DNA of 64,000 nucleotides from Mytilus edulis (Eukaryota). The number at the start of each line of letters is the position of its first letter. Within the stretch, counting starts at the first letter, position 1. The stretch is from positions 95,542,001 to 95,606,000 of the forward strand of contig NC_092344.1 of NCBI RefSeq assembly GCF_963676685.1, in the 5' to 3' direction. Below, one piece after another: positions 7,901 through 48,900 of the stretch. The position numbers and the translations under genes were made by a program. The notes below the pieces were generated by a model that was not told where the DNA came from, did no database searches, and saw only the letters and a list, made by a program, of their open reading frames with translations.

Positions 7901-10900
7901 GTCGTTATGTCGCATTATTATAAGACATAGTTATAACTTGGCGTGACATTTTTAAATATTTTTTTTTATAAATAAAAGATATTTCGCTGTCAAGTGTATG
8001 TGATTAAACTTTTTCTCATATTATCAAATTATCATTGCTTTCGAAACTCACTTTTTTTATTGGTGGTATTTACTTGCAAGGAAGTTGGTTCCAATGATGT
8101 ACCATTGATATTCCTGGCAAAGATGTAAACCGTATGATCGTTCATCATATTTTTATATTCTATTTCAAGCGTAAGGTAGTCTGATGTGTAGTTTACTGTA
8201 ACATTGTTTGGGTAAACGACTTGATATCCAATAACTAGCCCTCTCGACATTTGCAAATCCATTTTCTAACAAACGAACAAAAATGGAATGAAAGCGAGTA
8301 AATATTTTTTAACGAAGATGTCATCAGGTATGCTCATATTCCGGTTAACATAAAATCATTATAAGAATGGGAACCAGAAAGTGCAGCACCAAAAGACAGT
8401 GAAACAACTATAATATTTCAAAATAGGTTAACCGACCTTTATTTGTTATTGTGTCGATATACTATAAAACAAAATATGTACAGTTTACTGGTATTGTATT
8501 GAAAAATATTTTTAATTTTTGATAGTTATTCAATAGAGTGTTTTCTCATTTGATAACAACCATTCCTTTGAAGAAACTTTTTGAATGTTTTAACTGAGAT
8601 CAGTAAATTATACGTGTACCCATGATTTTGTCCGAACTTATTTGACGTCTTTCTATTTTTACTAAGTAAGAACAAGAGAGCATTAACAGCTCTGTTAAAT
8701 TAAGAAGTACCTGGGTACTTAATTTTGCCAAATTTGACATCCTGTGTTATTTAACATGGAACTCATCAATTTACATTACATGTAGAAATAAAGTCAAATT
8801 TTAGATAACTTTAATTTTATATATCTAAAGCTTTCTTGAAATATATTGTGTTCGTGTGTTTTCTACATTTGAAAATGCCTGTACAAAGTCAGGATTATAA
8901 CATTTGTTGTCCATTCGTTTAATGTGTTTTATCATTTGATTTTGCCAGTTGATAAGGGTATTTCCGTTTTGATTTTTTCTTGGAGATCAGTATTTTTGTG
9001 ATTTTACTTTTTTTAAAAGGTCAATACAAAATAAGGTTTCTTTTCAATATTATTTAAAATTGTATATGTGTCTTCAAAGAAGATTCAGAAAGCTATGAGT
9101 AACAAGAGGCACCAAATCAGCAGTAGTAATGCCACGTGGACAAAACAAGACTAACGAGAATAAGTTACCTTGAAATAGAGGAGTATTGAATTGTTAATAC
9201 AAATAAAGGAATTGGTTTCCAGCTCTGGTCCAACAAGTGGTCCTATAGAAACAGATATAATAAACAGATTATAGTATTGGTCAATATTATATTTTTATTT
9301 CAAATAAATATTTCAAAAACCAATTCATGCAATTTATTAGAAGATCGAAAAGCTATATAAGCGCTAGTTAGGTTGTATTAACACTTATGTTTTTCTTTAA
9401 TTATTAGTAAATTGAAAAATATTTTGCAAATGTATGCTTCCGTCTGAAAGGAAATTATTGCTCAAAGTTTGAATGCAATTAACTGTTGAAACATATGTTT
9501 TGGTCTGGTGTAACACTCGATTGAATTGGCCAATTTGTTTTTTTATGTACTTGAAAGTGTAAAAAAATAGTTTTTATATATTTTGTTTATTACTTAGATA
9601 AGACTACTACGTATGTAGCACCTCCCATCACACAATGTTTTGCCACTGTTTTAAAGAATGATGCAATTCACAGAAATTTTATTTCTGTATTTTTTAAATT
9701 TCCTGATAATTTACTCTATTTTTATTTAGATTGTATAACAATGCAATTAACTTTTTTGGTCGCATTTTACTTTTGAAATATTACAGACAATTCTTGAAAT
9801 TAACTTCGTGAAGTTAAACCAATCTTCATCTTGGAACAAGACTTATTTGGTTCTAATAAGCCCTCACAAGACCAGTACCTCACTCATCTCGAGCTATACA
9901 GATCTGTTGAACATCTTGTAGACCCCAGTCATTTGAAAGCTTTACAAAGGGTTAGGGGTTTATGGAGATTATATTTTGACAATCAGGAAGACCGAGATAA
10001 AACACTCACAAATGGTCTTGTTATTCGTAAAAAGCTAATACAAACATATGCTAGAAATCCCAAAACTGCTGAAAATGAAGATCCTAACAATGTTCGAGTA
10101 AGAATAAAAAATATACCTTGCTCAGCAGATGACGGTCAAATTCAAAGAGCCCTTGAATTTAATCACTGTGTAGTACATACATTATTTCGTGAAAGGCTAC
10201 GAGTCGATGGACGCGTAACAAATTGTCAGACTGGCGATCGCATTGCAATATGTGACCCAATACCAAATCCTTTGCCAAAAACTTTATTCATAGGTAAATA
10301 CAAAGCAGTGGTACTCCATCGAGGTCAAGTTGACACCCGTACAAACATTAAATGCAATAAATGTCTACAAGAGGGACATAAATCTTATGAATGCCCAAAC
10401 GATTGGGTGTGTCGAACATGTGGTGGCAGCGGTCATAAAGCAAGCTATTGCTTTACTTGCCCAGATGATTGGGTATGTCAGACATGCGGGAAGTCCGGTC
10501 ATACAGCAAAATACTGTAATGCAGACTCCGATTCTTCTAGTGAAGATAGCCAATCTGAATCAGAATCAGATTCAGACATTCCCACACATCCAGAAAGCTG
10601 TCAAAAGGATGCGTCACAAACAACCCAAGCAGCTGAAGCAGAACAAAAAACGCCTAGCTTTACTTTTAACAAACAGGCAAGCAACAATCTTGAAAATCAT
10701 TCAAACCTAAGTGAAAAAAAGGAACAACGACATGTCAAAAAGGCTAAACGAGCAAAAAATAAAAAGGACAAACAAAATTCAAATAAAGATCAGCCGAGCA
10801 TGGAACGCTTCCTAGCAGAAGCCTTTAGAACTCCATCAAATAAAACCAATGAAGAGAAAAAAACACGTACTAAACAAACAGCAAGTACTCCTACTGATGA

Positions 10901-13900
10901 GCTTCACAAGAGAGAAGAACCAGTGAAAAAAACAAAATCCTAAGCTCATCTTAATTATAACTATCAACTACAAATCTTCATGTGTTTTAAATTGTATATA
11001 TTGTATATATTTCTTTGTTTACTTTGTACTATAAACATAGACTGTGTTTATCAAGTGAACAAAATTGTAATTTGTGAATGTGATGTCTATATTGTAGATA
11101 GCATACATTCAAAAGAGAAATATCAGAATAGTTGTTTATTTAAAAATGTAGTAAATACAGCATATATGAAATTATTTGTAAATGAAAAATGTATAGACTA
11201 TGAATATAAAGGTGGTAAATCTTCTTGGATAAAAAATATTGTTCCATGCACATCTAAAACAAATGAAAATTGCTTAATTGGTTGGAGCACTAAATTAACG
11301 AAATGCAGTATTCATAGACACACTTTAATCCTTTGTCATAATATATTCTTGGAATCAAGTAAAAAACAGCCAGTCTTGAAGTATAAAAGTACAGTTTCGG
11401 TAAATGACAATCTTCCGATGTTCTTTTCTTCAGGATACGAACATATTTCTACACAGTTATTTTTTATAAACATTAACGAAACAGCCAAAAATATCCAACT
11501 GTTCTTGAACTTAGATATCACACACTTCTTTGTTGTGCACATATTTCCAGAATTAAGCACTTCTAGTAAAGTCATTTGGCTAACAACATTCTGTGACACG
11601 ATTAATTCCATATCTGTAAAAAAATATAAAAGTTGTAAATACAAAAGAACCACCCGCGCTATCAAAATTACAGTAAATGACAATGCTAATGTTTACAAAA
11701 TACAAGACGTTTTCAGAAAGTCAGTAATGAAACTAAAAATAGAAATTAACTTTACCTGTGCTATTTATAGGTCTAAAAATAACTACATGTTTATCTGGGT
11801 CACGATACATAGAACAGGTTTATACATTTTGCTAGATTTAAATAAATCGTTTAAGAGATCAACAATTAAACTTCTTTAATACTATAATGAAAACAAAAAA
11901 CTTCCACATTTGCTCACTTAATTGTCAAGGTTTAGCGAGAAAGGAAAAGCGCTTTAGATTATTCTCTTGGTTTCAACAGCAGAAATGCGACATTTTAATG
12001 GCACAAGAAACTCACTTGTCAAAAGATTTGATAAAGCAAATTAACAATGAATTCCATGGCAAACATCTTCACAGCCTAGGCACAACAAATTCAAGGGGAG
12101 TTTCTTACTTTATTAATAAATCACTAGACTTTAAATTAATTAATGAATTTTGTGATAAAGAAGGGAGAATTATTATAATTAATATAGAAATTCAAGATAA
12201 GATTTTTACCTTAGTAAACTTGTATGCACCTAATGAAGTTCATGCAAGAAACCAATTTTATAAAAAAGTAAGTAAATTAATTGAAGAACACACTCTTGGT
12301 GCTCTAATAGTAGGGGGAGATATGAATGATTTACTCTCAGCTTTAGATACAAAGAACAATAAATTACATAAAAAGTTAAAAAAGCCAGTCAATGGTTTAA
12401 AACAATTAATTAAAACACATAAATTGATAGACATTTGGAGACAATTAAATAAAGATAAAAAACAATTCACATGGAAAAGAAAAAATTCTACAAATGAAGC
12501 TAGTAGAATAGACTTCTTTATAATATGCACACAAGCACGCCTAAGTACTGTATCTGCTGATATCAGGCCTGCACAAATTTCATTCACAGACCACCAGGCT
12601 ATTTCGCTTAAATTAGACATTTATGCAAATAATCGGGGTAAAGGATATTTTAAAATGAATAACAGTATATTGACTGATACTCAGTACAATAAACTAATAA
12701 ATAAGTTAATTGAAAAGTATGAGCAAAATTTTAATCTTACAAATGTCCTAAATCAGTGGGACCTGCTAAAAACTGACATAAGAGAGTCTACTATCCAATA
12801 CTGTAAATCAAAAGCCAGAGAAAGGAAAAATAATATTTTAATAATGGAAAACAAACTAAATCTTTTAAATGAAAGATTAGACAAATTACCTGATAGGAAA
12901 AATAATGAACTTTTTAATCAAATAAAAAATTTAGAAAAAGATTTAGAAGAGATATACTCTTTAAAAGCCAAAGGAGCCCAAGTTAGATCAAGAATAAAAT
13001 GGGTAGAGGAAGGGGAAAAAAATACTAAGTACTTTTTATCTCTAGAAAAAAATAGACAGGCTAAAAAATCTATTAATAAATTAATGACCAAAACCGGTGA
13101 GGTTACTGTTGATCAAAGTGAAATTTTAGATGTAAGTAAAGAGTATTATAAATCTCTGTACAAAAGTACATGTCCCGAAACTGAAATTTTAAAGACATAC
13201 ATAGAAAATACCCCCATTGATCATTCTTTAACTCCTTGTGAAAGCAAACAAGTGGATGGTAAATTAACTTTAGAAGAGCTAACATCTTCTATTTATAATA
13301 TGAAACTAAATAAGACTCCAGGCAAAGATGGCTTAACAGTTGAGTTTTATCGACAATTTTGGCCAAATTTAAAACATATTGTATTGAATGTTTCTAATAC
13401 ATGTTATGATAATGAAACTTTATCTGAGACCCAAAAGATTGGGATAATATCATTGATTTTTAAAAAAAATGACCCTTTGTCCTTAGATAATTACCGTCCA
13501 ATTACTTTATTGAATACTGATGTAAAACTTATTACATATACTTTAGCACAAAGACTAAAAAAAATCTTACCCCTAATTATACATAGAGATCAAAATGGTT
13601 ATGTTAAAAATCGATATATAGGATTTAACGTACGCCAAATTCAAGATATTATAGATTATGCTGAAAACTTTAATATTGATGGAGCTATACTATTTATTGA
13701 CTTTTCTAAAGCGTTCGATTCACTCGAATGGGACTTTATGCTGGAATCATTAAAAAAATTTGGATTTAATAAGTCTTTTCAAAAGTGGGTCAAAACACTT
13801 TACCATGATATAAAAGGATGTATTTTAAATAACGGGTGGATTTCTGAAACCTTCGGGATTCAACGGGGAATTCGACAAGGATGCCCTTTAAGCGCGTTAT

Positions 13901-16900
13901 TGTTTGTTTTATCAGTTGAAATACTGGCTTGTAGGATAAGGGATAATAATGATCTGAAAGGGATACAAATAAAAATTGATAAAAATACTCACAGCCTAAA
14001 AATCTCACAGCTAGCAGATGATACAACTCTCTTTCTAAGATCTAAAAATGAAATAAAAAATGCACTTAATTTAATAGAAACTTTTGGATCTTTTTCAGGG
14101 CTTAAACTTAATAGAAATAAAACAGAAGGTATATGGTTAGGTAAACTAAAACACTGCAAAGACAAATTTGAAAGTATCAATTGGAAAGATACGGTGAAAA
14201 GTCTTGGCATTTATTTTGGCCTGAACAAAAAAGAATGTGAAACAATAAATATAGAAAGACAGTTTGAAAAATCAGAAAGGATACTAAATGATTGGAAGAA
14301 AAGAAAATTGAGTATGATAGGAAAAATAACTATAATTAAAACACTAGTTATTCCCAATATAACATACGTTGCTTCATTGATAAATCTCAGCAGTGAAATT
14401 ATTAGTCAATTTAAAAAAATCTTATTTAATTTTTTATGGGAGGGTGGTAGCGAGAAAGTTAAACGCTCAGTGTTAAGAAAAGATTATATTGAAGGGGGAT
14501 TAAAAATGACAGATATTGACGCATACATTGAGGCTATTAAAATAAATTGGGTTAAAAGATTAACTGATGAAACTTGTGCTAACTGGAAAATCATACCTAC
14601 TTTTTATTTTAGAGAGTTTGGGGAAAATAATTTAATATTTAAAATGAATCTTAATACTCATAAGTCACTAGAAAACCTTAAAAACTTACCTACATTTTAC
14701 TTTGAAATTTTGAAATGTTGGATTAAAAATGGAGGTGGAAAGACGAAAGTACCTGATAATTATAGAGATATAAGAAAGCAAGTTATTTGGGGAAACCAAT
14801 ATATAAAAACAGGTGGTAAAAGTTTATATTATAGTAATTGGGTAAAGGAAAACATAATTTTTGTAAATGATGTAATTGATGATAAAGGAGAAATTTCTCA
14901 TAAAATATTAGATAAACTTAAAAAGAAACAAAATTGGATTTCCGAAATATGTTCCCTTCGGAAAGCTTTACCCAAAAGTTGGATCCAAAAATTAAAGAGC
15001 AATATATCAAAACATACTAAAATCAACATTACACAAGACATTAAAATGTTAAGTAATGGATTGTATTACGATCTAGACAAAATTAAGTTTAAAGAAATTT
15101 ATAATATTATTATCAGGTCAAATAAAGAGCTTCCAGTAGGTTTTTGCTCATGGAAAAACCAACTATCAGGTGAAAATGTTATATATTTCATTAAGAAAAA
15201 TTTATCTTTCACCTTTCTTTTTTTAAAAGATAATAGATTAAAAATGTTTAGATGGAAATTACTGCATAATATTTTAGCTATTAACCATAATTTGTATCGC
15301 TGGAAGGTAGTTAATAGTGAAAACTGTGAACTATGTTCTAAATCTGATAGCTATAATCATTTTTTCTTTGAATGCACATGGGTAAAAAATTATTGGACAT
15401 TTCTACACAAAATATTTATGTATCTTAATATTGGGCAACATGTTTTTTGTCTACAAAATCTTGTAGTAGGGTACAAAATTGAAGATGTGGATTATCATGT
15501 ACTTAATCATATTATAACAATTGTTTGCTTTGTGATTTATAAATGTTTTTATTTATCCGAAAAGAGAACCAAATATGTGAATATGATGTCAGTCCTAAAA
15601 AACGAAATTGATACACAAATTTTATATCATCCGGAAAATTCCTTTTTGAGAAAATTTCAAAGAAAAATTTTAGAAAATTGATTCTTTGGCTGTCATATTT
15701 ATAGTTGATTGACCTACATTTTTGAGAATCACAAAAATGTCATTGAAATAAAAAGAAGACAAATTTCTAACGAAATTGCCTTTTACTTTTTTTGTTTGAT
15801 TATCATATATAGTATATCATTCAATGTTTAGCGTACTTGAAAGATAAGACACTATCTAAAAACTACCATAATTCAATTATACTGACCTCTTAATCCGATC
15901 GAAACCATGCTCTTTCACTTTCGATTAATCCAAAACTAAAAGCTAAACAAAAGACGGTCAAAGTTCCGTTTTTCTTTTCATTGTGAAGTAAAGTACATGT
16001 TGTAGACAGCTATTACTCTGTTAATTGTAACTAACACGCAATACTACATGTATGTAAAATTATAAAAAGTTTACCAATAAAATCCCCTGGTTTTATTGGT
16101 AATTAACCATACAGGGCAGAACCTTAATGCCATTGTTGTAACATTAAGGAGATTTGTTAACAACTATTATCATAGTAAAATAAAGTATCTGAAGTTGTAA
16201 AAAAAAAAAAAAAAAAGACAATTCTTGAAATTAAGTATCACGCTTCATGTGTGCATGCTAGCCTGTATTATGTGTTACGTATTCACAGTCATTGCATCAC
16301 CTTCTATTTACTGTAAACTTATATATAAACCATTTGTCTTTTGCACAGTTTACACAAGTATTCCCCATTTCAAACTAATTGAAAGAGTTGGTATTGCTTT
16401 GTTTCATTAAAAAAAACCGGCCAACGTAGATACTAGTAACTTGTCTTGGGGAGGGATAAATCCTACTTTGTAAAGAATCACTCTGATTTAAACAAAAATA
16501 TTCTCTGAAACTGACACCATAAAGATGCTTGATATCTTGATTGAGAACATTTTTGCAACTTTTTGAGGACGTGCTTTTCAACAATCTATTGGCATTCCAA
16601 TGGGAACCAATTGTGCCCCTCTTCTTGCGGGCGTGTTCATCTATATTATTATGAGTCTGACTTCATACATGAACTTTTTAAGAAGAAAGATAAGAAGTTA
16701 GAAATATCCGTTAACTTTACTTTCAGCTATACAGATAGTGTTCTTTCACTTAATAATTCAAAATTTGGTGACTATGTTCAACGCATCTATCCCATCATAT
16801 AGAGACAAAGGAAACAAGTCTGTCTCATATCTTGAATTACATCTAGAAATTGACAATGAGGGTCGGTTAAAAACAAAACTTTTCGACACAAGAGATGATT

Positions 16901-19900
16901 TCAGCTTCCTAATTGTGAACTTTCCTTTTCGATGTAGCAAAATTACAGCAGCGCCTGCATACGGGGTAAATATCTCCCAATTGATACGAAATTTCCGGAC
17001 TTGTGTTTCCTATCATGATTTCCTTGATATAGCTTTACTGCTCACAAGGAAGTTATTAAACCAAGAGTTCTAAATGGTGAAGTTAAAATCATCCCTTTGT
17101 AAATTTTACGGACGCAACACGAGTTGGTTGACCGTTATGGAATTTACGTTTCACAGATGATATCAGATATGTTCCTTATGTCGTAACTACAATCCCGTTC
17201 CCTTTTCACTAATGTGACCTACTGAATTAGACTATTAACCGGATTTGTAATAACATGAGCAACACGATAGGTACCAAATGTGGAGCAAGGTCTGCTCACT
17301 CTCCCGGAGCACCTGACATCGTGTTAATTAGTCTTTAGTTTTCTATTTTGTGTCTTGTGTACTATCATTTGTCTGGCTGTCTTTTTATATTTTAGCCATG
17401 ACACTGTCAGTTTGTTTTCGATCTATGAGTTTGACTGTCCCTCTGGTATCTTTCGCCCCTCTTTTATAGCGGTATCATTATTTAGAAGTAGCATATTTCT
17501 GCGGGTTTATAATTATAAAATTATGTTTTTTAACCTTTGCAAATAACATATATACATTTGTCTAAATTTTATAGTCAAAGTAAAAATCTTACTGTCAGAT
17601 TTTGTTGAGAAAATTGCTGACCGAGCTCCAGGACTCCAATATGCGGACTTTGAAAGTTTACACTGTACTTGTACTATATACTGTGTTGCTGGCATCATAC
17701 TGCTGATGTTAACTATCATATTTTTTTGACGGATATTAAACATAACGGATTTCTAAAAAGAAAACCTACTACAGTTTCTAAAGTTGATATACATGATTTA
17801 AAATGATGATCTAATATGAACAGACGTTTTGAAAAAAAAACCACACTTCTGAGTTAGATATCAAACTTATGTTAAAAAGTAGAAATCAGATTTATTTTGT
17901 GAGTTTATTTGAATTAAATGTAATTTGTAATTTCTATTAGAATAGAGATACCCTGATAAATACGCTTTATTATATTAAAAGTCAACCACTGTTTTCATAA
18001 AAAAAAATCTGAACAACATATACTTACCTTTTCCCTACTCGTATTGGAAAAAGTTTCTACCAAACATGTGACATTAGTACTGAGATTGAAAGGCTTTGGG
18101 AGAATTGGCATTGTCCATGAAGCTTTTAATGTATCAACAGTGGTAGTAACACTCAGCTGCTTGACTGGATCTAGACATGCTTCAAATTATATTATTATTA
18201 GTTAGCTTTCATTTTACGATAAGGCTATTTTCATTTTGTCAAAATTAACTAAAAAATATCGTTGATGAATTATTCACTTTCAAGACAATAATTCGACTTT
18301 ATTGAATCCGTATTCACGTGGTTGATCTCTATTTATAGTTAAGCTTATATCGGGTTAAAGACCTTCTAAAGTCTTCAGAGTTATCATCTTGAGAGTTAAT
18401 TACTAAGTAGATGACGTCTAGACAAAAATACACATGAAATATACATGTACATATAATAAAGTCCATAAATGTTAATTGTTTATTTAAGACTTTTTGCAAT
18501 TTAGATATACGTTTTAGTATGTTCTAAATTAAATACTGGAACTTGAGTCAAATTGATGAGATTAAAACACTTTTATGCAATACATGTATTTATGTAATTG
18601 TAAATGTACAAAATCTATATCGACAGAATTTTACTTTGGTGAACTATTTTTTTAGTAATCTTACACGGAACAAGCATTTAAAAAAACTGCATGATTTCAT
18701 TTCTATGGTGATTGCAAAACATGGTCTTTGAATTGTTATATATTTGTGTTTTCGTTCAACGCCACTAAAACACCTCTAAACCTTATATTTACTTCATTAA
18801 AATAATTTTCAAAACTGTGTTGTCAATATATAACTTACTGATATTTTCTTGAATATATATTGATCGATTGAACTTAATTTCACCCCAGAGGTTCTGGGCA
18901 TGAAATGATAAAACCAGTTTATCATTTGGTGTTATTTCTGTTAGCTGTATGACACATCGACGACACAAGGAAATGTTTTTGTTATCATATCTAAGGTAAC
19001 ATAGTGAACTTCGACATTCTTGTTGCTTACAAGTATCTGAATCAGAAACACAACTTCCATGTGCAGAACTGAAACGAAAAATAAAATATTGCGCATAAAC
19101 AACAGGATATAATCATCATTCTCATAAAAGTACTATTTCCATATCAATATTGGCTCTTTTTTGGAATAAAAAACAATCCACCAAACACACGAGTAAGACT
19201 AAATAAATGTATTATTACATAATTCTAACAATAGTAATGAAAGCTTAAAATGATTTTTGCTGCTGCTGCTGATACTTATAATTTTTTTTCACTCACAAGA
19301 ATAAGATTGTAAATTATTGATCATTTTTCCTTAGGGTTTTATGGAAATGGCAAAACAACTTCACTACTTTTTGAATTGATAACTCTATACTTGGAGAGCA
19401 GAAAAAAACTTTTTTGATTTTGAAGCCCCCATTTACAAGCAAAAGATTTTAGTTTTACTTTTTCAAAATTGTTGTTTTCTGATCTCATCTATTATCCAAC
19501 AGCTTGATTATCTGCACTCTATCTCGACCAAATTACATTGTAAAAAGAACCCTGTCTCGCTCGTTTTTGACTTTATGGGATATCCAACCTTTTGGTTTTA
19601 CCTTTATTTGTATCTTCATCGTGGATTAACGATATTTGAAAATCGATAAACTGCTGCTGTCTCTAAATTGACAAAAAAAGTATATCCAATTCATTTAACA
19701 TCAATAATTAAACATTGGCCTTACATTGAAGAATACTTTACGCTCCATTGTATGCAGTCATCATCAGAACTCCAATTGCAATGTAATGTGCTATCACTTT
19801 TTAGAATACATTCTACTGTGATCATATCTTGTGGTTTTTCTAAAATAATTATAAAACAAACAATTATGGCTGCATGTCAATAATAGAGATAAAGGAATAG

Positions 19901-45964: not shown

Positions 45965-48900
45965 CTTACTTACTTATCCTCTTCATCCCCAGTGGGACAT
46001 AAGGCCATAACAAACTGCCTCCACTTCTCTATGTCCTTGGCCATGTACTGGGTTTGGCCCCAGGTGTAACCCATTGCTTCTTATTCTGCTGTAACAGTTC
46101 TTCGCCAGGTGATTCTAGGTCTCCCTGGTTTCCTTTTTCCTAATGGTGTCCAATATAGAACTGTTTTAGGTGTGCGGTGTTGTGGCATTCTCAGTACATG
46201 ACCTAACCATCTAAATCTCCGTTTTTTAATTTCTGCTGTTATGCTCTTAGCATTACATTTCTCCAAAAGGCTCTTGTAGCAGATCTTATTTGGCCAGAAT
46301 ATTCTGTTGATCTTTCTTAGGTAGCTTGTATGGAATGCATCTACTTTTTGAAGGTCACTAACTAAAACACGCCAAGTTTCTGAACCATACAGTAGGACAG
46401 ATTTAACACTGCTGTTGTAAATTCTAGTTTGGTCCTTAAACTATACTGGTTGGATTTCCAGATTGTATGAAGTCTTGCAAATGTTGCACGTGCCTTAGAT
46501 AGTCTTGCCTTTATATACTTCCCTGTCCCATTATCTTTACTTATGATGCTTCTAAGGTAAGTGAAATCTTCAACACTGTCCACTGACAGATCATTGATTT
46601 TTATTGGTGTTGTATTTCTGGTGTTTATTGACATTACCTTGGTCTTCTTGGCATTGACATTCAGACCAGTTTGCGATGCATAGTTGTTAAGTATGTTGGT
46701 CTTCTCTTGGAGGTGTTCACTTGTTGTTGATAATATGGCAATGTAATCAGCAAAATCAAGGTCTTCTAGCTGGTTAAACATGGTCCACTGGATATCCCTT
46801 ACCTTGTCTGATGTTGTATGTCTTTGTATCCAGTCCAATGACCAATAAAAATATGATTGGTGACATAATACATCCCTGTCTTACACCAAATTTAACTTCA
46901 AATGAGTCTGAGATAGAGCTATCGAGGATGACACTGCATTCAAAGCTGTTGTAGAAGGCTTTTATTAGCATCAAAATATTTGGTGGAATTCCATATGATT
47001 TCACAATTTTCCAATGAGTTTCTCTATGTATACTGTCAAAGGCCTTTTTGAAGTCAATGACATTAATGAAGAATGGTGTGTTCCATTCAATGCATTGCTC
47101 AATGATGTTTCTCAGAGTGAAAATTTGGTATTTGCATCCTCTGCCTCTTCTAAAGCCAGCTTGTTCTTCTCTAAGCTTTTCATCCACAATTATCAACTTT
47201 GTACTTGTTTGGCTTTATAAATATTTTGATTTGAGCGTCACTGATGAGTCTTATGTAGACGAAACGCGCGTCTGGCGTACTAAATTCTAATCCTGGTACC
47301 TTTGATAACTATTTATCAATTCTTTTTAGAAGAATTTTGCAAAATACCTAACTAGGGACAGAAAGTAATGTAATCCCTCTCCAGTTGTCGCAGTTGCGAA
47401 GATTGCCTTTCTTTGGTAATTTCACAATCAGGCATTTGCTCCAGTCTGATGGAATATCCCCTTCTTTCCAGATGACAAGGAAAAGATTGTCGAGAACTTT
47501 GGATGATGTATCTAAGTCTGCCTTTAACATCTTTGCGTGAATGGAATTAATGCCTGGTGCCTTCCTTGTCTTCAATGATTTAATGGCATTTCTTACTTCT
47601 TCTATAGTTGGTGGTTCTGTGTTGATGTTTAAATCGTCTTCCGATGGCTATGATATCAGGCTCAGGGCAGTTTAATACCTCTTTGAAATGTTGGACCCAC
47701 CTTTTTGCTTGTTCCCTTTCTGTTTTCAATGCTTTGCCATTTTGTCGTTTACATGTGCTGTCTTTGCATTTGATGTTCCACAGAGTTGTTTGGTGATTTT
47801 GTAAACTGTGCTCAACTCTCCAAGAATTGCTGCCTTTTCTGCTTCTTTTGCTAGGTCCTCCAGATGTTACTTGTAGTTGATCTTGTAACCTTTTGGACTT
47901 TGCATTCAATGATTTCTGTTTTATAGTCTTTCTTTCTTCAATTTTTTGCAAGGTTTCCGATGTTAGCCAGTCCTTGTTCTTTTTTGTTTTGTGACCACTG
48001 TCTTTTCTGCCGTTTTTACATAAATATCTTTGATGTTATCCCACTTCTCTTGTACACTGCCTTCTTCATCATCAGAGTTTTCTAGCACACTAAACCGATT
48101 TTTCAATTCTAAGCAAAAAGCTTTCTTCACATTTGGTGACTTCAACCTTGCTGTGTCTAGCCTCTTTCTATTCTGGTTTTCAGTAGGTGCCTTTCTTAGT
48201 TTTAATTTGATGGTAGCTTTCAGTGATCGCTATTTACATCTGCACCCCTCAGTTCTCGTACATCTCTTAATGATCTACGCCACTTGTTGTTCACCAGTAT
48301 ATGGTCGATCTGGTTAACTGTTCTTCCATCAGGTGATTTCCATGTTACTTTATAGATGTTTTTATGTGGAAAGATGGTCCCTCCTATCACCAGTTTATTA
48401 CAAAGACAAAGTTCGATAGCACGTTCACCATTCTCATTTTTCACCCCGCAACCATGCCTGTCCATGAAATTTTCAGCATCAGTGTTGTCCGATCCTACTT
48501 TTGCATTTCGATCTCCCATTATTACCAGCATGACGTGTTGAGGTACTTTGGAAATGGCAGTCTGCAGTTGTTCGTAAAAATCATCCTTGGTCTCATCTTC
48601 GGCATCATTTGTTGGTGCGTAACACTGTATGATAGAAAGTTTACAGTAGTCAGAGTTAAATCTTGCTGTTACTAACCTTTCACTGATTGGTTCCCATTCT
48701 AGTAGTGTCTTTGCCTTTTCTTTGCATATGATATTTCTACACCATTAATATGTCTGTCAGTGTTTCCAGAGTAAAGAATGATGTTTCCACTATTTGTTCT
48801 AGTCTTTCCTGAACTAGTCCAACGACATTCGCTCACACCAAGAATGTCCAACCTTTAGTGCTGCATTTCCTTGATGACCTGTGCAGTCTTTGATGTTTCA

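Follow-up and report, generated by a model that had tools for sequence, protein, structure and literature searches.

Results

Host Element and Features of the Locus

The window analysed here is a 64,000-nt stretch of Mytilus edulis DNA (NC_092344.1, positions 95,542,001 to 95,606,000, forward strand), in which a retrotransposon extends from 9804 to about 16216. The following features were assigned to it.

9785..9803 (+): left target-site duplication, 19 bp, repeated exactly within the window only at 16216-16234
9804..10943 (+): ORF1, 5'-truncated in this copy, with CCHC zinc knuckles (Pfam zf-CCHC, E 2.6e-5, 3 stretches)
10941-10943 (+): ORF1 stop
10944..10979 (+): 36-nt spacer from the ORF1 stop to the AUG of the middle ORF, A-rich directly before the AUG across families
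10980..11879 (+): middle ORF, 299 codons, open, amino acids changing at about the neutral rate (codon-position, stop and family tests)
10993..11009 (+): two tandem TGTATATA motifs (10993-11000 and 11002-11009), matching UGUAHAUA, a candidate Pumilio element
11075..11111 (+): RNA hairpin containing a bulged G; compensatory changes conserve it in one subclade
11269..11613 (-): one exon of an antisense RNA that is spliced and derives from some copy of the window family; its other exons are at 13993-14041 and from about 15887 upward (about 15887-15915)
11887..15681 (+): ORF2, 1264 aa, with AP endonuclease, reverse transcriptase (RT) and zinc finger (Pfam PF03372, PF00078, PF13966)
16179..16216 (+): AATAAA signal at 16179-16184, followed by a poly(A) tail at 16199-16216, from the sequence
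16216..16234 (+): right target-site duplication, the pair of 9785-9803

The truncation at the 5' side falls within ORF1, for which full-length sister copies possess approximately 35 more residues including the start codon. The copy is young, as its duplication is intact and its relatives are 99–100% alike. The traits of the L1 clade, which includes Tx1, were all detected, namely an ORF2 combining AP endonuclease, RT and a C-terminal zinc finger, a poly(A) tail and a target-site duplication. The best solved relative of ORF2 is human LINE-1 ORF2p (E 4e-89), and the CCHC knuckles of ORF1 are of the Tx1 type, not of the vertebrate L1 type. The Pfam domains and the LINE-1 match thus bear out an L1/Tx1-like element, as the earlier note on this DNA had proposed; the label Tx1 itself is our assumption from the ORF1 type, and no named Tx1 reference occurred among the best 120 RT matches. 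The closest named match of ORF1 is a Mytilus edulis protein (97%; genome 1.37 Gb), and pearl oyster was among the species with ORF1 relatives. Public Mytilus gene sets list ORF1 proteins of the clade (P0001, P0003 and others) under the name of the host gene CNBP. Between the loci L061 and L068, synonymous divergence was 1.0 in ORF1 and 0.40 in ORF2, which suggests an exchange of ORF1 between families. Two other retroelement remnants lie in the window: 46362-48744 (-), which we take from its motifs to be a second LINE, decayed but with pieces resembling endonuclease and RT, and 16480-17073 (+), just 3' of the insertion, a fragment with RT-like motifs that presumably belongs to another retroelement, perhaps a Penelope/DIRS-like one.

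An Open Frame between ORF1 and ORF2

The frame following the ORF1 stop is free of stops over 10944-11879 (311 codons, 299 aa from the AUG at 10980) and spans the gap up to the ORF2 AUG at 11887. The GC content of this segment is 27.5%, at which 311 open codons have a chance of 9e-13 by base composition; 2000 dinucleotide shuffles gave no stop-free run above 148 codons (median 54), and the other two sense frames contain 29 and 37 stops. The 943-nt gap holds 18 ATGs. The earlier description of 311 stop-free sense codons at roughly 25–30% GC, filling the whole gap with a start at ATG 10980, was therefore accurate. Its count of about 15 Cys and its N-x-T sites were likewise recovered (15 Cys and three N-x-S/T sites), a Pfam search of the window ORF at E 1 returned no family where no domain had been recognised, and the moderately hydrophobic C-terminal segment is there, but weak (best 19-residue mean 1.29).

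The composition of the frame is that of random sequence. Over 9229 codons from 23 families, base frequencies at each codon position match those of random non-stop codons almost exactly, whereas ORF1 and ORF2 differ. The Cys content of 4.4% compares with 4.0% and 4.5% in the two other frames of the same regions, and so reflects TG-rich DNA; a Cys-rich protein motif was rejected on this ground. Readthrough from ORF1 was also rejected, since the middle frame varies relative to ORF1 among families: the same-frame placement after the ORF1 stop seen here is not kept elsewhere, which indicates no readthrough design.

Copies and Families

The window's own family contains six near-complete copies that are 99–100% alike, of which five have an open frame and one is frameshifted. 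In a sister group with 88% DNA identity the frame is open in only one of five copies (L007, which carries insertions of 51 and 3 nt), and a second family (ORF1 66% and ORF2 80% identical) is open over 340–352 codons in 6 of the 7 copies seen, with approximately 31% amino-acid identity. For a wider survey, 80 loci were fetched by ORF1 similarity among 150 matches listed, and 40 more by endonuclease similarity, again among 150 listed. The end of ORF1 and the start of ORF2 could be parsed in 71 of 81 loci (including the window) and in 25 of the 40; the remainder were truncated, interrupted or decayed. The 96 parsed loci fall into 31 families of the mussel genome. A middle ORF of 202–549 codons, with its stop at −48 to +42 nt relative to the ORF2 AUG, was found in 29 of the 31 (stops were sought only from −60 upward); each of the remaining two families is a single copy that lacks a full ORF2. 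The ORF2 AUG is overlapped in 23/29 families, and in 11/29 the stop lies at +3 or +7, giving a 4- or 8-nt overlap. The ORF1–ORF2 gap measures 618–1776 nt in the best copies, and no family falls below this range. The endonuclease tree carries the middle ORF on all branches, while the intact middle ORFs form 25 clusters, and BLASTP links most of these to no other cluster.

Among 35 metagenome loci, most of which were too short, long frames after ORF1 were found in L116 (324 codons), L122 (310, stop overlapping ORF2), L133 (253), L132 (169 + 249), L137 (162 + at least 363) and L126 (at least 196). No single continuous frame was seen in L121, where the 640-nt gap holds 125 codons, or in L123, with pieces of 117–217; L121, L122 and L132 form a separate long branch. 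Trinucleotide repeat runs, read as poly-Thr and poly-Asn/Gln, occur in the gaps of L120 (1246-1617) and L121 (1544-1918), where they appear to be a frame-preserving means of lengthening the spacer. In the single copy L083 (1746-4529, +), the middle frame continues without a stop into the endonuclease sequence (928 codons in total), which is probably the result of a deletion or frameshift.

Searches for homologues of the middle ORF gave blanks, from which neither novelty nor absence follows: no homologue at E 0.01 in a set of 423 candidates (164–524 residues), only 5 short fragments (53–137 aa) in a profile search of 1.84 billion representatives, and no usable match in the ESM Atlas (recognition 1362). 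Pfam gave no family at E 0.01 for 19 middle ORFs; 3 of the 18 non-window ORFs matched at E 0.04–0.1, below the cut-off.

Maintenance of the Frame

Approximately 56 stops were expected in seven intact pairs and none was present, a figure biased by the choice of intact pairs. An intact middle ORF was present in 24/30 copies with a full ORF2 and lacking in the other 6/30. Among copies not picked for intactness, 28 of 63 indel events were multiples of three, as compared with 47 of 201 in a control made of stretches 3' of ORF2, some reaching into the DNA that flanks the element. In the DNA-only alignment of L061 and L068, 1308 of 1333 aligned bases were in phase. Shared indels count against maintenance of the frame, for 7 of 16 are frame-shifting: three occur in duplicated loci (L010/L011 and L042/L045), two in the last 60 nt, and two in the L052 family, which has a further in-frame AUG at about +215. 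One of the seven is common to the non-duplicate copies L048 and L059. In the L107/L149/L151 family, four copies with full-length ORF2 show an ORF of 49–53 codons followed 30 nt on by one of 311–319 codons. The fixation of two tandem ORFs indicates that a continuous polypeptide is not needed, while near-continuous translatability up to ORF2 is kept. As judged from these substitution and indel patterns, there is selection against stops and frameshifts in the middle ORF.

Amino-Acid Constraint

Constraint was evaluated on DNA-only alignments, using in-phase blocks of at least 30 nt in ten pairs; for the window and L031 these cover 131 of the 299 codons. Differences at codon positions 1/2/3 numbered 431/439/429. 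The pooled dN/dS was best at 1.0–1.1, with a 2dlnL cost of 4.0 for 0.9 and 12.2 for 0.8, so that 0.8 was rejected, and no single pair deviated significantly from 1. For ORF1 and ORF2, dN/dS was 0.09–0.25. The codon-position counts contrast in the same manner: 337/339/332 for the middle ORF (7 pairs), 258/216/692 for ORF1 (6 pairs) and 218/111/611 for ORF2 (5 pairs). Amino-acid changes were no more conservative than in a neutral simulation (pooled z −1.2 by BLOSUM62 and 0.45 by hydropathy). A slight third-position lean in shared within-family substitutions (58/54/74) counts against neutrality. Protein-guided alignments gave 0.73–1.16 for four closer pairs and 0.47–0.71, significantly below 1, for four distant pairs; we attribute the latter to alignment bias, which was not simulated. 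At the level of these alignments, no amino-acid constraint on the middle ORF was detected.

The earlier note had proposed a maintained accessory gene, expected to show dN/dS below 1, and had named stops and frameshifts at neutral rates together with dN/dS near 1 as what would speak against it. The frame is maintained, in 29 of 31 families, and its stops and frameshifts do not occur at neutral rates, but no constraint on its amino acids was detected and the expected dN/dS was not obtained. A conventional accessory protein, whether secreted, membrane-bound or directed against host defence, could in principle yield a dN/dS of 1 as the average of very fast diversifying selection, and the long open frame, its AUG, its hydrophobic start and the ratios of the distant protein-guided pairs would fit such a protein. 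However, codon positions are flat in nearly every pair, dN in the compared pairs is no higher than the synonymous rate of ORF1 and ORF2, the composition is random, Pfam recognises no family, and the ORF is split in the L107/L149/L151 family, which we call active. AlphaFold2 gave a pLDDT of 26 from a 7-row alignment, a weak test. The accessory-protein reading is thus largely refuted, and we hold it to be very improbable.

A recent copy that stays open by luck, or the shadow of a gene on the opposite strand, might also produce such a frame. The window copy is indeed young, and a spliced antisense RNA crosses the region, with two joints (GT..AG ends, minus strand) found in raw reads (run X24) and in contigs (run X1) from two studies. 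Against this, the frame is open across 29 of 31 mostly unalignable families, antisense ORFs in 94 gaps reach at most 129 codons (median 71), and the flat codon positions exclude constraint in any frame. Chance or artefact is thereby refuted. The antisense RNA may be a transcript of the host that passes through a copy; within the middle ORF, its exon starts two bases ahead of the AUG of a 91-codon antisense frame. In three raw RNA runs, shallow with 50–138 reads each and covering both strands, no sense start, end or splice was detected. The 3' end of the element (16150-16200) is matched by many RNA reads that differ from it at several places and carry a poly(A) tail, which suggests expression of related families or of short elements that share the tail.

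Hydrophobic Start

The N-terminal hydrophobicity of the middle ORF (2.51) exceeds that of local shuffles (2.06, z 3.6; later windows z −1.3 to 1.9) and of the other two frames (2.21 and 1.85), and lysine runs often follow. A signal-peptide-like start, as described previously, is therefore present to the extent that it is more hydrophobic than shuffles, but substitutions do not preserve it and two families (L090 and L097) are without a hydrophobic segment in the first 45 residues. A secreted or membrane-bound product, the earlier suggestion, is not supported by a dN/dS of 1.0–1.1, by changes that are not conservative and by hydrophobicity that is not preserved. The middle ORF, modestly hydrophobic at its N-terminus, is probably not a secreted protein.

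Signal sequences accept many changes, and a product tolerant of sequence could be envisaged in which only the hydrophobic N-terminal peptide matters, for example by recruiting SRP and tethering the RNA to the ER, the remaining chain serving as a timer or tether. The hydrophobicity above shuffles and other frames, and the lysine runs behind it, would be expected of such a product. Its hydrophobic tract, however, is T-rich at all three codon positions (0.36/0.42/0.44), and among the hydrophobic residues of the first 28 codons 40/67 stay hydrophobic where 38.8 are expected. The two families lacking the segment, and a slow rate in the first 60 codons that is alike at all positions (42/46/42), also disagree with this proposal, as does the apparent CDxxxDYIHS motif, which proved to be an RNA hairpin. 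We therefore regard a sequence-tolerant product as improbable.

RNA-Level Elements in the 5' Part

The conservation of the 5' part is at the RNA level. The first 60 codons are slow at all three positions alike, and the motifs within them occur in varying phases. This part comprises an A-rich leader, a U-rich tract and TGTAHATA motifs, and the last 20 nt before the middle AUG are 59% A across 23 families. UGUAHAUA, a candidate Pumilio element, has 16 matches in the first 120 nt of 13/23 families, as compared with a shuffle mean of 1.4 and a maximum of 6 over 500 shuffles, although the families share ancestry and the counts are not independent. These matches lie in different codon phases, and TGTATATA was the top 8-mer in an unbiased ranking. 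The motif was also present in the first 120 nt of 4/5 newly found families, and within 300 nt of the ORF1 stop in only 2/13 metagenome loci. Its load per kb is 5.8 in the first 120 nt, 0.88 beyond nt 120, 0 in ORF1 and 0.19 in ORF2. Other candidate roles, TATA-like or in polyadenylation (UGUA), may apply to these motifs.

The hairpin at 11075-11111 was paired in 92% of cells, with two-sided changes in 8 of 14 pairs and 0/500 shuffles as high, as scored on a structure derived from the same sequences. Its support is this covariation, for 10930-11200 as a whole shows no folding signal (z −0.7) and the hairpin alone reaches z −1.6. The hairpin model gave 25 strong matches in 94 loci, all within one half of the endonuclease tree, and Rfam gave no match in 9700-16400. 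CDxxxDYIHS was accordingly discarded as a protein motif in favour of the covarying bulged RNA hairpin. In the branch without the hairpin (L090, L092, L096, L097, L101, L105, L116, L133 and L175), another short motif, AGCTCA ... AGAGTT, occurs in the first 60 nt of the middle ORF and is possibly an RNA element of that branch's own.

Discussion

The middle ORF is real and clade-wide, and represents a variant of L1/Tx1 architecture whose evolutionary signature is unusual. Its translatability, rather than its product, is very probably what selection acts on. We consider it reasonably probable that the middle ORF is a translated bridge that brings ribosomes to the ORF2 start by termination-reinitiation. 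The observations behind this proposal are the open frame, its fixed position, the lack of detectable amino-acid constraint and the RNA motifs in the first 150 nt, from which we infer ribosome restarts as follows. Ribosomes leaving ORF1, or loaded on a shorter RNA, would restart at the middle AUG and elongate through 0.6–1.8 kb of AU-rich RNA, whose many AUGs would make crossing by a scanning subunit unlikely. They would then stop beside the ORF2 AUG and restart there. A middle stop close to or over the ORF2 AUG, a trait of termination-reinitiation, is present in 29/31 families when stops are sought from −60 upward. AUGs between the ORF1 stop and the middle AUG are not depleted (27 seen, 16.7 expected), so that simple scanning to the first AUG fails in some families. 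The ribosome relay also gives no reason for the long spacer, and this counts against it. The UGUAHAUA motifs and the hairpin might, more tentatively, allow host RNA-binding proteins to set ribosome entry and thus tune the ORF2 dose. The full proposal, a protein-less middle ORF in a three-cistron RNA of a deep invertebrate LINE lineage that acts as a host-gated relay through Pumilio sites and hairpin and sets the RT dose, is conceivable, and we put it at somewhat less than an even chance.

Translation might instead shield the RNA, if ribosomes cover an AU-rich regulatory stretch and so guard against nonsense-mediated decay, premature polyadenylation or silencing, while ORF2 is reached via an IRES or a subgenomic RNA. 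Such protection is compatible with every neutrality result and with the 3'UTR-like motif load, and IRESs have been predicted in long vertebrate L1 spacers, according to the accessible text of PMC5381506. By itself, however, it does not need a stop at the ORF2 AUG, yet 11/29 families have theirs at +3 or +7, and a by-eye look upstream of ORF2 revealed no evident conserved structure. We consider this shielding unlikely.

If the ribosome relay holds, the elements would constitute a large natural collection of random sequences under continuous translation, and a device of this kind may lie hidden in the "non-coding" long spacers of other L1s. Selection would here act on translatability and not on the protein, a natural case replicated in 29 families and of use to research on de novo gene birth and random-sequence proteins. 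It also cautions that a long ORF at a conserved position need not be a protein gene.

The element resembles L1/Tx1-type non-LTR retrotransposons in domain order, the CCHC ORF1, the APE-RT ORF2, poly(A), a duplication of variable length and 5' truncation. Two ORFs are known for that type, whereas here a third long sense ORF fills the ORF1–ORF2 gap in 29/31 families. Regulatory uORFs are a case in which translation, not the peptide, matters. As in the middle ORF, their start, stop and frame are selected and not their residues, as far as the available part of PMC5972666 describes them. They are short and located in 5' leaders, whereas the mussel ORF has 200–550 codons and is internal.

No three-ORF L1/Tx1 element of such architecture was found in the open-access full-text literature; Repbase entries of oyster L1-Tx1 families may record such an ORF. 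The accessible portions of two mollusc surveys (PMC10294476, PMC11203168) and of PMC5203782, PMC7140322, PMC8550402, PMC13524379 and PMC3894237 do not mention it. Primate L1 ORF0 is likewise an extra retroelement ORF, but a 71-aa antisense one in the 5' UTR (available text of PMC5203782). Env-carrying Ty3/gypsy elements also possess an extra ORF, but are LTR elements with recognisable fusogen folds, none of which was found here (PMC13524379, in its accessible part).

Long intergenic regions are described for L1s of fish, frog, lizard (clade 2), opossum, afrotherians and megabat in the accessible portions of PMC5381506 and PMC4072516. These spacers are similarly long, often AT-rich and poorly conserved, and persist though deletion should be easy; they measure 257–1032 nt, are called non-coding, with predicted IRESs and no reported test for ORFs, whereas the mussel gaps of 618–1776 nt carry an open frame (same portions of both sources). 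How ORF2 is translated across them is stated there as an open question (PMC5381506, PMC4072516), to which the relay would be a concrete answer for one lineage. In the available text, L1 was inhibited by long intergenic regions, an AUG-free megabat spacer being worse than the intact one (PMC4072516), and restarting translation beyond a long spacer was judged inefficient and risky (PMC5381506). With an open frame, this problem would be solved.

Termination-reinitiation is reported for SART1, where it involves a downstream RNA structure, for human L1 and for caliciviruses in the accessible sections of two reviews (PMC5972666, PMC5902531). In these systems, as in the mussel element, the upstream stop adjoins or overlaps the downstream AUG, and the SART1 hairpin lies downstream of the restart site (same sections of PMC5972666 and PMC5902531). 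Their upstream ORF encodes a functional protein, whereas the mussel element would employ for this purpose a dedicated ORF in which no protein constraint is detectable, and it would need two restarts.
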